Source: Patescibacteria group bacterium (GTDB lineage Bacteria > Patescibacteriota > Minisyncoccia > Phycocordibacterales > CAIRYW01). Taken from it: 52,433 nucleotides of DNA. Each line of letters begins with the position of its first letter. Positions within the stretch are counted from its first letter, which is position 1. Below are positions 17,887 through 52,433 of the stretch, one piece after another. The stretch spans positions 1-52,433 of the forward strand of contig JAZKAJ010000016.1 of the NCBI GenBank assembly GCA_040389185.1, written 5' to 3'. The position numbers and the translations under genes were made by a program. The notes under the pieces are model-generated. The model worked only from the letters and a program-made list of their open reading frames with translations. It had not been told where the DNA came from and made no database searches.

Positions 17887-17976
17887 TGGCGGAGAGAGCG
17901 AGATTCGAACTCGCGAGACCGGTTAGGGTCCGGCGGTTTAGTAAACCGCTGATTTCAGCCACTCATCCATCTCTCC
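17887..17976 (-). tRNA. tRNA-Ser(ACU)
   Basis: Acceptor GGAGAGA/TCTCTCC, G73, encoded CCA, long variable arm; anticodon arm GCGGT-TT-ACT-AA-ACCGC. Confidence 0.88.
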
Positions 17977-32598: not shown

Positions 32599-32675
32599 GC
32601 GCGTGTAGCTCAGTTGGTTAGAGCACAAAGCTTATACCTTTGGGGTCCATGGTTCGAGTCCATGCATGCGCACCA
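32599..32675 (+). tRNA. tRNA-Ile(UAU)
   Basis: GCGCGTG/CATGCGC acceptor, A73, CCA; CAAAG-CT-TAT-AC-CTTTG anticodon arm; canonical D and T arms. Confidence 0.9.
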
Positions 32676-50162: not shown

Positions 50163-50283
50163 CCCGTTTCGAAGCAGGTCGCGATCACTCGCTTGTGCTT
50201 AAATTAAGTTTAAATTTTTTTAATAATATTATGTATATAATCTCGCTTGAAGACTCTATCGTGACCGCGGCTTCGAACGGGAT
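50161..50283. mobile_element. Second CCCGTT-terminus MITE-like element
   Basis: ATCCCGTTTCGAAGC ... GCTTCGAACGGGAT termini, AT-rich core. Confidence 0.65.
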
Positions 50284-50321
50284 TCATTTCCATTAGTACT
50301 AAGTATAACATCAAGAAAGAT

Positions 50322-50356
50322 AAACAAAAAACATCCCTTGCGAGATGTTTTTGTTT
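50322..50356 (-). terminator. Terminator of the tRNA cluster
   Basis: AAAAACATC / GATGTTTTT stem with T tail. Confidence 0.65.
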
Positions 50357-50419
50357 TGAAATTTTGGATGTGGACACGAACGAATTCGTGTCGCCATAAA
50401 TCCAAACACAACTTGTGTT

Positions 50420-50495
50420 TGGTACCCGGGGTAGGATTCGAACCTACGACATACTGCTTACGAGTCAGCCGCTCTACCAACTGAGCTACCCAGGC
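50420..50495 (-). tRNA. tRNA-Thr(CGU) with A31-G39 mismatch
   Basis: GCCTGGG/CCGGGT acceptor region, GCTGA-CT-CGT-AA-GCAGT anticodon arm, encoded CCA. Confidence 0.85.
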
Positions 50496-50514
50496 AAAAT
50501 GAACATTCTGAAAG

Positions 50515-50587
50515 TGCTCTCCAAGGGATTCGAACCCCTAACCACTCCCTTGCAGGCGAGTTGTGTTACCGTTACAACCAGAAGAGC
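50515..50587 (-). tRNA. Aberrant tRNA-like gene (GCA/Cys-like anticodon, A73)
   Basis: Good acceptor (GCTCTTC/GGAGAGC) and T arm; irregular D and anticodon stems. Confidence 0.5.
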
Positions 50588-50607
50588 TTTTCAGAAAATT
50601 TCTAACG

Positions 50608-50811
50608 TGGACTCGAGAGGATTCGAACCTCCGACCTTTGACCTAAAACCGCCAGCCTTCGCGCAAGTTTGCACCTCACTGCGCCGTGAAGCAAACAGGA
50701 GAACTTGTGTCCCCGAAGGACATTATGAAGGGTGCCTCCCTCACCTACCGACTAACGATCCTATTGTCTTTTTGAGACAATCAACGCTCTAACACACTGA
50801 GCTACGAGCCC
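50608..50811 (-). tRNA. tRNA (probably Lys, UUU) with 130-nt insertion at 50649-50778
   Basis: GGGCTCG/CGAGTCC acceptor, A73, GCTC/GAGC D stem, TTGAT/GTCAA anticodon stem, intact T arm; removing the insert gives loop TT-TTT-AG. Confidence 0.75.
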
Positions 50812-50868
50812 ATTTAGAAAATGGAGAACTTTCTCCACATCCAAAATTTCAAATGACTTTATAACGGC

Positions 50869-50896
50869 AGTATACTCTTTTGGATTTGGAATGCAA
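50869..50896 (-). promoter_or_regulatory. Sigma70-type promoter for the tRNA cluster
   Basis: TTGCAT-N16-TATACT on minus strand. Confidence 0.6.
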
Positions 50897-50997
50897 GAGT
50901 ATAAAATTCAAAATATTAAGAATATGATTACCTACTTTTTCCTTACAGGAACAGTACACCTTTTCGATTTTTATTTCGCATAGCTCATAAAAATCTG

Positions 50998-51141
50998 AAA
51001 AGGTCTTGCACTCGGGGCCCCTGCCCCGAGCTCACCTCCATAGAGAGGTCTCTATGTTCGGGGAAAGTAGGTATTATCAGCACAATTACAGATAAAGAAA
51101 AAAGCCGCCAAAAGGCGACTTTTTTCTTTATTAAAAACTTT
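50998..51141 (-). repeat. 5S rRNA trailer (terminator, antisense 5S 3' copy, shared palindrome)
   Basis: 51050-51085 is an inverted copy of the 5S 3' end; 50998-51036 matches the reverse complement of 32844-32880. Confidence 0.75.
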
Positions 51142-51252
51142 GTGCTGGCGATTACCTACTTTCCCCTCCATAGAGTATCATCGGTACTACGAGGCTTAAC
51201 TTCTGAGTTCGGAATGAGATCAGGTGTGGCCCTCGCGTCAAATCACCAACAC
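51142..51252 (-). rRNA. rrf: 5S rRNA (short, ~111 nt)
   Basis: CCACACCTGATCTCATTCCGAACTCAGAAGTTAAGC, GATGATACT, GAAAGTAGG motifs; ends approximate. Confidence 0.93.
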
Positions 51253-51389: not shown

Positions 51390-52433
51390 TTTCCTAATAG
51401 GAATCGAACATTAGTACACCTCGACTTAAACGATTACTCGCCTTACATCTAGTGCCTATCAACGTGATCATCTCTCACGAGTCTCAAACGATTCCTAATC
51501 TTAAGGTTGGCTTCGCTCTTAGATGCTTTCAGAGCTTATCCAATCCCGACATAGCTACGGAGCGGTGCCACTGGCGTGACAGCTCCCAGACCAGAGGTCA
51601 GTTCATCCCGGTCCTCTCGTACTAGGGACAAATCCTTTCAAGAATCAACGCCTGCAGTAGATAGGAGACCAACCTGTCTCACGCTTATGTTCACAAATTT
51701 TACTTTGTTACGACTCAAATTACTTTGAGGTTCGGACTATATCTTCATCTTTCCTAACGGAATCAGATGGCTTACTTGTAGTCTCTACGAGCAGAATTAA
51801 ATCAAAGATTTTAAATCAAGAATCAAGAATTTTTGATTTATGATTTTTACTTTTTGATTCATCTTTCTCTCGGTATTGTCCTCAACATCACTTGTAGGAT
51901 TTCACCGATATTAGTAAGCGAGTTTATATATGTTTCCATATACAACCGCCGTGATTCACATACATAATAAATATGTATCTTTGGTTCCAACAAATTAATC
52001 TATACTCTAGAATTAATTTTGTTTTGTATCTCTATAATTTTCTTTTTCAATATAACAGTCTAAGTTCACTTGTGTGTACTTATATTTTTGTCTCGTGGGA
52101 TTCAGACTGTAAATTAGTCAAAAGTTTCAAATCTTAAAGTCAAAAGAAAAATGCATTTGCATCTAACTTTTAGACTTTCGACTTTCTGACTTTTAACTTC
52201 TCTACGGTCTGAACCCAGCTCGCGTATCTTTTTAATTGGCGAACAGCCAAACCCTTGGGACCTTCTCCAGCCCCAGGATAAGATGAGCCGACATCGAGGT
52301 GCCGAACTCCGCCGTCGATATGGACTCTTAGGCGGAACTAGCCTGTTATCCCCAGAGTAGCTTTTGTCCGATAATCTCCCACCGCATCTAATGCGAATGG
52401 TCGGTTCACTATGTTCTGCTTTCGCATCTGCTC
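51390..52433 (-). rRNA. rrl: 23S rRNA, 3' part (partial, runs off the window; intron-containing)
   Basis: Peptidyl-transferase centre sequences (GGGATAACAGGCT, CACCTCGATGTCGGCTC, GAGCTGGGTTCAGACCGT|CGTGAGACAG) and sarcin-ricin loop AGTACGAGAGGACC. Confidence 0.98.
51684..52203 (-). mobile_element. Group I intron in 23S rRNA after E. coli-equivalent U2593 (520 nt)
   Basis: 5' exon ends in U, intron ends in G; P7 elements GTAGAGACTAC and AAGATATAGTCC; IGS GCGGTT pairs with exon GACCGU, adjacent TCACG pairs with 3' exon CGTGA. Confidence 0.9.

Follow-up and report, generated by a model that had tools for sequence, protein, structure and literature searches.

A stem-closed tRNA module in the ribosomal RNA operon tail of a Patescibacteria group bacterium and its relatives: a candidate processing stalk around tRNAs and non-decoding tRNA-like units

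The tail of a ribosomal RNA (rRNA) operon in a Patescibacteria group bacterium carries a compact series of transfer RNA (tRNA) and tRNA-like units framed by a perfect 20-base-pair (bp) inverted repeat. This series, which we call the module, lies within the 52,433-nucleotide (nt) stretch of DNA analysed here (the window; GenBank assembly GCA_040389185.1, contig JAZKAJ010000016.1, positions 1 to 52,433). The genome from which the window derives (G000) has 997 kb in 29 contigs at ~39% G+C and is 95% complete; G001, G002 and G004-G007 are relatives from the same genus. We describe the module and its counterparts and, with moderate confidence, read it as a stalk for precursor processing that encloses a tRNA operon at the tail of the rRNA operon and includes non-decoding tRNA-like units. 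Transfer RNAs were called with ARAGORN (with and without its intron mode) and with Rfam covariance models, and the region 50250-51150 was scanned against Rfam at E<=10, which listed 45 matches.

Read on the minus strand, the order is the 3' part of the 23S rRNA gene, the 5S rRNA gene, a hairpin followed by a U-run, broken 5S-like fragments and then the module. The features, all on the minus strand, are as follows.

51391-52433: 23S rRNA gene, 3' part, truncated by the contig end.
51143..51250: 5S rRNA gene (Rfam RF00001, 73.9 bits).
Flanks of 51143..51250: 5S precursor stem of ~24 bp (ATTGAAAATTTTGTG.. / ..CACAAAGTTTTTAAT), stem score 49.
51092..51131: terminator-like hairpin and U-run just 3' of 5S, read from the sequence; the terminator scan did not report it.
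50869..50896: promoter-like site, TTGCAT (50896-50891), 16 nt, TATACT (50874-50869), read from the sequence.
50834..50853: 5' arm of the closing stem, TTTGAAATTTTGGATGTGGA (RNA strand), from repeat search, fold, covariation and shuffles.
50607..50811: tRNA-Lys(UUU)-like unit, from the ARAGORN intron mode.
50814-50820 and 50599-50605: acceptor extension of the Lys-like unit, TTTCTAA / TTAGAAA, exact and read from the sequence.
50514..50587: Cys-like unit with the 6-nt anticodon loop CUGCAA, ARAGORN 'anticodon (gc)', 35.5 bits.
50589-50596 and 50506-50513: acceptor extension of the Cys-like unit, TTCTGAAA / TTTCAGAA, an exact repeat pair.
50420..50495: tRNA-Thr(CGU) with encoded CCA, 66.1 bits.
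50402..50422: hairpin in which the Thr gene's CCA end is paired, CCAAACACAA g TTGTGTTTGG, from repeat pair and fold.
50373..50392: hairpin GACACGAA-ttcg-TTCGTGTC, abutting the 3' arm, from repeat pair and fold.
50355..50374: 3' arm of the closing stem, TCCACATCCAAAATTTCAAA (RNA strand), from repeat search, fold and covariation.
50317..50352: intrinsic terminator, a stem of 11 pairs with a GCAA loop of 4 and then a T-run, from a scan call (50352-50327) and fold.

The two arms of the closing stem are, as the initial annotation of this DNA had proposed, 100% complementary over all 20 nt; they lie 459 nt apart. To assess chance pairing, the 1009 nt from the 5S gene to the next gene were shuffled 150 times with dinucleotide frequencies preserved. 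The best long-range stem scored 28.3 +/- 3.0 in the shuffles (maximum 42) against 46 observed, a value that none of the 150 reached. Both arms occur once in the genome, and all other 20-mers differ from them by at least four mismatches. At minimum energy (-199.6 kcal/mol, z = -6.43), the 545-nt transcript folds into a structure that contains the terminator, the cloverleaves and the acceptor extensions as well as the stalk, and none of 100 shuffles was as stable. Other structural claims of the initial annotation were borne out as well: the extensions around the Lys-like and Cys-like genes are both exact and both appear in this fold, the hairpin said to sequester the Thr CCA is present at 50402-50422, and a terminator at one end of the module was found by the scan.

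A pattern scan for the 3' arm across 301 genomes of the order matched 113 genomes, nearly all by single chance matches, and the two-arm arrangement was found in G000 and G006 only. A scan for the 5' arm over all genome contigs gave at least 120 stretches; among the 80 listed, one had both arms, and it is the place of the G006 module. A search of sequencing runs gave six candidates with word shares of 0.05-0.12, none of them recorded as RNA; in contigs from four of the six, matches were limited to conserved parts of the Thr gene, a tRNA T-arm and the 5S gene. These contigs belong to other organisms, given that the likeness is only 90-99% and confined to conserved parts.

Several features suggest that in G000 the module is transcribed on its own. 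The hairpin at 51092..51131 separates the rRNA genes from the module, and a comparable hairpin and T-run follow the 5S gene in G001, G004, G005, G006 and G007. Of the promoter that the initial annotation placed ahead of the module, both hexamers are there, and identical TTGCAT/TATACT hexamers with equal 16-nt spacing precede the G005 module, but a consensus scan does not report a promoter, since the -35 hexamer fits the consensus at only three of six positions.

Within the genus, four more genomes carry a stem-closed frame (G005, G006, G002 and G001). The G005 module follows the 5S gene, as in the window, and has promoter-like hexamers and a terminator; those of G006, G002 and G001 sit between the 23S and 5S genes. 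A hairpin at the position of the one that abuts the 3' arm (50373..50392) is also found in all four, and one almost identical to the Thr CCA hairpin follows the last unit of G002. The contents of the five modules are as follows.

G000: Lys-like unit with an insert, Cys-like unit, Thr(CGU).
G005: Val(GAC) with C at position 33, Asp-like unit with a 6-nt loop, Asn(GUU).
G006: spacer of ~120 nt, Val-like unit with U at position 37, Thr(CGU).
G002: ~220 nt of unassigned RNA, then a unit with the loop UUUUAA.
G001: ~230 nt, then an Ala(UGC)-like unit.

Aligned to one another, the five modules share 20 stem pairs, at which 93.9% of the cells are paired; shifting the 3' partner by 1-3 columns lowers this figure to 23.5-56.1%. 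Four of the stem pairs are altered on both sides among the five modules. In particular, G001 differs from the window by four consecutive double-changed pairs, and the remaining differences between the two are G·U pairs. The covariation score of the stem is 0.250 compared with 0.169 in shuffles, a level reached by 4 of 500. The check on covariation that had been suggested with the initial annotation thus revealed both compensatory and wobble changes in relatives.

A similar picture emerges across the order. A 5S match was obtained in 32 of the 41 genomes searched, and 30 5S loci from 30 genomes were analysed. Fourteen of these loci have an 18-23 bp stem that closes a domain of 143-509 nt next to 5S, with a sequence that differs between genera, and in 14 of 14 cases the domain lies in the rRNA tail. 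The 14 stems were re-measured with G·U and A·C pairs penalised equally and contain 269 Watson-Crick pairs, 13 G·U, 3 A·C and 3 other pairs, counts that come from related genomes and are not a clean statistical test. Because a G·U pair on the rRNA-sense strand is an A·C on the other strand, the balance of 13 to 3 indicates RNA pairing on the rRNA-sense strand. At the level of sequence comparison, this points to the closing repeat being an RNA helix on the tRNA-sense strand and not a DNA repeat.

The same data bear on mobile DNA, in which the inverted repeats would be the ends of a tRNA cassette that is invertible or resembles a miniature inverted-repeat transposable element. Inverted arms, variable cargo and a shifting position relative to 5S are what such an element might display, and a mobile tRNA cassette was among the options first put forward. 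Yet the arms are single-copy and their mismatches are wobble pairs on one strand. The flanks carry no direct repeat that would mark a target duplication, no transposase or recombinase frame is present (the frames across the module are antisense artefacts only), and the module always sits in the rRNA tail. Moreover, phage records match generic tRNA parts only, over at most 19% of the query, and none covers 80% or more. We consider a mobile origin highly improbable.

The module shares its architecture with the neighbouring 5S gene. A stem of ~23 bp surrounds 5S in all 30 order loci. The motif TTGAA occurs within 25 nt upstream of 5S in 23 of these 30 loci, against 1 of 29 in an outgroup sample of further 5S loci taken phylum-wide, and TTGAAA stands at the start of 10 of the 14 module stems. 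In G002, where module and 5S are arranged in tandem, the outer 12 nt of their two stems are nearly identical. A stem around 5S is present in 18 of the 29 outgroup loci; ARAGORN called no tRNA in the sequence upstream of 5S in any of the 29, and no stem there encloses a tRNA call. The module therefore looks specific to this order among the genomes sampled. These observations speak for a stalk-cutting step shared by 5S rRNA and the module, in which the cut itself would be made by ribonuclease (RNase) III.

RNase III needs about two helical turns of double-stranded RNA, and 18-23 bp correspond to about two turns. The genome encodes one canonical RNase III of 228 amino acids with Ribonuclease_3 and dsrm domains. 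RNase M5 was considered as the stalk enzyme and rejected, its sole match in the genome being topoisomerase I. For RNase Z, the best match in the genome is RNase J, at 19.5 bits where the cut-off is 293. The RNase P RNA is matched over its full length; it is divergent, at 50.1 bits (E 7e-15), below the Rfam cut-off of 100. This low score fits a report, in the part of it available, that RNase P RNAs of the candidate phyla radiation (CPR) need lowered thresholds (PMC8172020).

Turning to the enclosed units, the initial annotation had described anomalies in all three tRNAs. This holds for the Lys-like and Cys-like units. Thr(CGU), on the other hand, is near normal: it has the features of a decoding tRNA (a 7-nt anticodon loop, U33 and a purine at 37), and its sole oddity is an A·G mismatch at the loop-closing pair. 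Genome-wide tRNA lists show how the three relate to the rest of the repertoire. Normal genes for Lys(UUU) (C11:22819-22896) and Cys(GCA) (C21:46605-46679) are present elsewhere in G000, whereas Thr is represented outside the module by UGU and GGU only, and Thr(CGU) is found in the module alone. The same division is seen in G005, in which the 34 tRNA genes outside the module include normal Asp(GUC) and Val(GAC) but none for Asn (0 of 34); the module Asn gene is the genome's only one. In G006, 32 tRNAs were called around 33 model matches outside the module, with Val(UAC) and Thr(UGU) as the sole Val and Thr types. The last unit of the module is thus a needed, working tRNA and the other units are redundant. 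As it is unique in both G000 (Thr(CGU)) and G005 (Asn), this last tRNA must be released in mature form.

Some further observations concern the repertoire as a whole. Only 33 tRNA genes were found in G000, with none for Asn, Asp or Met; as the genome is 95% complete, part of its tRNA set is probably unassembled or too unusual for detection. The window also holds a tRNA-Ser with anticodon ACU (17887-17976) and a tRNA-Ile with anticodon UAU (32599-32675), both called by ARAGORN. Both anticodons recur in G005 and G006, and they are therefore features of the lineage and not errors. A 'tRNA-Stop(tta)' call in G006 was rejected as an ARAGORN register slip on a normal Lys(UUU) loop.

The two aberrant units of the window depart from a decoding tRNA in different ways. 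The Cys-like unit has the lowest tRNA score in the genome and an anticodon loop of 6 nt. In the Lys-like unit, the anticodon loop is broken by a 130-nt insert (50649-50778) and the D loop is without GG. In both, the acceptor and T arms are intact. Shortened loops of this kind are recurrent: ARAGORN reports 6-nt anticodon loops in 6 of the 30 order loci, from four families (G000, G005, G002, G037, G028 and G039), in units that score 35.5-60.2 bits on the tRNA model. Outside the modules, no 6-nt loop was found among the tRNAs of G000 (32), G005 (34) or G006 (32). The G002 unit resembles the G005 Asn gene minus its first anticodon base. The sequences of the aberrant units differ from those of the normal genes along their whole length, so these units are not recent copies of them.

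The middle unit can be followed across three species. In G000, G005 and G006 it has common flanks (TTYTGAAA / YTTCAGAA) and aligns as one orthologous unit, with a consensus cloverleaf of 21 pairs of which 11 are compensatory. The loop, however, reads CUGCAA in G000, CCGUCA in G005 and CUGACUA in G006, and the acceptor sequence is different in each. With both anticodon and acceptor changing between species, the middle unit is not a tRNA of fixed amino-acid identity. Judged from these alignments, it looks selected for shape rather than for decoding. We infer a selective filter by which changes that kill decoding are tolerated or favoured: an altered anticodon would misread codons, and a broken cloverleaf would disturb processing of the precursor.

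Intact acceptor and T arms are also what one would expect if the aberrant units were special tRNAs that work outside decoding, for instance in cell-wall or lipid aminoacylation or in frameshifting, with the Lys insert being a spliced intron. Such introns have some precedent, as group I introns in tRNA genes occur both in this genome (C5:55318-55661) and, according to the accessible text of one report, in CPR bacteria (PMC8172020). The orthologous middle unit nevertheless changes its 'anticodon' and acceptor from one species to the next, and the 130-nt insert has neither a group I match at E<=10 nor a relative in the genome. Furthermore, recognition by the Cys, Asp and Lys synthetases involves the anticodon. 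Such a special role appears very unlikely to us.

The insert itself folds as a closed multi-hairpin domain. It has no Rfam match at E<=10 and is single-copy: across the genome and the fetched loci, the best other match covers 24 nt (E 1.4). As a group I intron it was rejected, there being no RF00028 match at E<=10 across 50250-51150, and it is unlike the tRNA and 23S introns of the genome. Either a decayed intron or an expanded anticodon arm could account for it. The true group I intron mentioned above lies in the anticodon loop of another tRNA gene (C5:55318-55661; Intron_gpI, 69.5 bits), which the ARAGORN intron mode calls as Thr(GGU) with a 271-nt intron.

A simpler account would be that the module is a relic, that is, an ordinary tRNA operon beside the rRNA genes in which duplicate tRNAs are decaying and the stem is what remains, without function, of a duplicated 5S stalk. 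For the aberrant types, normal copies do exist elsewhere. Close relatives also vary in the content of the module, in its position before or after 5S and in whether it is present, and broken 5S fragments are present next to the module in both G000 and G002 and downstream of 5S in G007, from which we conclude that the rRNA-tail region has been rearranged. A functionless stem, however, would not be expected to match at 20 of 20 positions, nor to show four compensatory pairs and a ratio of 13 G·U to 3 A·C across genera. Decay should affect all arms, whereas the middle unit keeps its cloverleaf with 11 of 21 pairs compensatory, and six separate genomes show one kind of defect, a shortened anticodon loop. 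We regard the relic as unlikely.

Another alternative is that the transcript, or its tRNA-like parts, persists as a stable non-coding RNA, closed and branched, that displays tRNA elbows as a decoy, a scaffold or a Y-RNA-like partner. The pairing of the 5' and 3' ends and the extended acceptor stems, which leave single units less exposed, would suit this idea, as would the conservation of shape while anticodons drift. A long terminal stem combined with a tRNA-like domain also recalls the bacterial Y RNAs. No Rfam family fits, though. The comparison with known large non-coding RNAs that had been suggested for this module yielded no match to GOLLD or ROOL at E<=10 (50250-51150) and no family match otherwise, Y RNA included: YrlA (RF02553) gives 18.5 and 14.6 bits against a gathering threshold of 69. 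FtrA was rejected at 30.9 bits against 134, its match being limited to the CCA hairpin and the terminator. A search for a TROVE/Ro60 gene in this 95%-complete genome was negative. In addition, the content is not conserved between genera, and the last tRNA needs release, being the only Asn tRNA in G005 and the only Thr(CGU) in G000. A persistent RNA of this kind seems improbable to us, and the 'closed RNA' idea of the initial annotation holds at the level of the helix.

A broader proposal is that non-decoding tRNA-shaped units form a selected RNA class of Saccharibacteria, carried on a conserved stalk beside 5S. The closed module of ~480 nt, or its stable products, would then act in ribosome or tRNA metabolism, for example as a scaffold or decoy for tRNA-binding enzymes or nucleases. 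We hold this to be doubtful.

We thus return to the processing stalk. Among the options initially offered, an RNase III-type processing unit fits best, as judged from the compensatory and wobble changes and the RNase III gene. The inverted repeat would be the closing helix of a small RNA precursor domain in the rRNA-operon tail of this Saccharibacteria-type order. In G000, the domain comes beyond the 5S terminator, and a promoter of its own probably drives a transcript of ~540 nt. The 5' leader and 3' trailer would pair over 20 bp, a length suited to RNase III, and so mirror the 5S stalk. RNase III would first cut the stalk, thereby removing the leader and the terminator hairpin. RNase P would then cut at the 5' end of each cloverleaf, and the remainder would be trimmed by exonucleases or RNase J. 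The product tRNA-Thr(CGU) would be a working tRNA. The Lys-like and Cys-like units would be non-decoding and keep their cloverleaf probably to direct folding and cutting of the precursor, their disabled anticodon loops also preventing them from misreading codons.

Several points weigh against this account. The module is dispensable, as it is missing from G004 and G007 and from 16 of the 30 order loci. No tRNA is detectable in five of the 14 stem-closed domains, and covariation within the genus comes from only five related sequences. The aberrant units could simply be decaying duplicates. In both G000 and G005, a terminator-like hairpin and a promoter-like site split the module from 5S, although the promoter-like site in the window, missed by the consensus scan, is weak on its own. 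With such a hairpin and a promoter-like site of its own, excision from the rRNA precursor is probably not the only role of the stalk in G000 and G005, and a stem that is perfect despite no need for rRNA excision hints at a role beyond it. Further functions of the stalk may be to trim away the leader and terminator, to steer folding or to shield the ends.

The closest known parallels are the stalks of rRNA operons, in which RNase III sites flank 16S and 23S and pre-5S has an extended helix I. As in these, the flanks of the module pair into a helix of about two turns, 5S has a stalk at all 30 order loci, and RNase III is encoded. Unlike them, the module stalk encloses tRNAs and tRNA-like units, in G000 seemingly on a separate transcript. 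The intervening sequences of 23S are likewise stem-closed, variable and dispensable inserts removed by RNase III, but they lie inside the rRNA itself and contain no tRNAs. A tRNA cluster carrying its own stalk is not known to us from earlier descriptions.

A non-decoding tRNA shape that serves as a cutting signal has a precedent in archaea. In Haloferax volcanii, a tRNA-like structure upstream of 5S is cut by tRNase Z (Hoelzle et al. 2008, as related in the available part of PMC3296008). A comparable shape in the 23S-5S spacer is found here in G002, G028, G037 and G039, each with a 6-nt-loop unit at that place. In contrast, the units of G000 are downstream of 5S, no RNase Z was detected in its genome, and the archaeal system has no stalk. 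In organelles, t-elements retain a tRNA shape as an RNase P cutting signal and do not decode, as far as the consulted portion of PMC10941002 describes them. They share with the module units a tRNA shape without decoding, and differ in being organellar, in occurring in mRNA contexts and in having no enclosing stalk. The Y RNA YrlA resembles the module in its long stem formed by the ends and its tRNA-like domain, from which the low scores and the missing Ro60 gene given above set the module apart.

For CPR bacteria, the accessible portion of PMC8172020 describes rRNA operons with tRNA genes between or after the rRNA genes on the same strand, together with divergent RNase P RNA and intron-bearing tRNAs. 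In that portion, a closing helix and tRNA-like units with shortened loops are not mentioned. Our search of openly licensed literature, which covered its sources in part, found no description of a stalk-closed tRNA module or of recurrent 6-nt anticodon loops.

Ultrasmall bacteria, Saccharibacteria among them, have reduced sets of RNA-processing enzymes; in G000, RNase III, RNase J and a divergent RNase P RNA were found. In this context, a common stalk and a shared base motif under both 5S and the tRNA module suggest a way of maturing stable RNAs with few enzymes. The tRNA look-alikes would moreover offer a clean natural case of a tRNA shape kept without decoding. There is also a practical side for annotation, as such units are easily miscounted as tRNA genes or missed.

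A few observations concern other parts of these loci. The closed domains in which no tRNA was detected (L031 in G012, L028 in G013, L040 in G010, L037 in G036 and L036 in G026) fold as long multi-hairpin structures, and some of their hairpins are T-arm-like. The 23S match in the window spans 1043 nt for 535 model positions, which leaves ~500 nt extra, with short direct repeats within. Group I introns are present in the equivalent part of 23S in relatives; none was called in the window 23S (51391-52433) at the gathering threshold.

Between the terminator-like hairpin after 5S and the module, 50935-51085 (minus strand) contains two fragments of the 5S 3' end, one inverted and one forward, the latter split by an element of ~100 nt. 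The same element splits a full second 5S-like copy in G002 (locus L046) and a 5S-like fragment downstream of 5S in G007 (locus L038), and it is found in reverse orientation within a 5S-like copy of G001 (locus L035). In G037 (locus L025), a duplicated tRNA end has its T-loop broken by the element, which resembles a small insertion element with stable-RNA genes as its targets. Downstream of the module, a second element of ~125 bp, bounded by inverted repeats (50163-50290), stops precisely where the next gene begins, at its ATG (50162, minus strand). This gene encodes a membrane protein of 256 amino acids and is conserved downstream of the rRNA genes across the genus.

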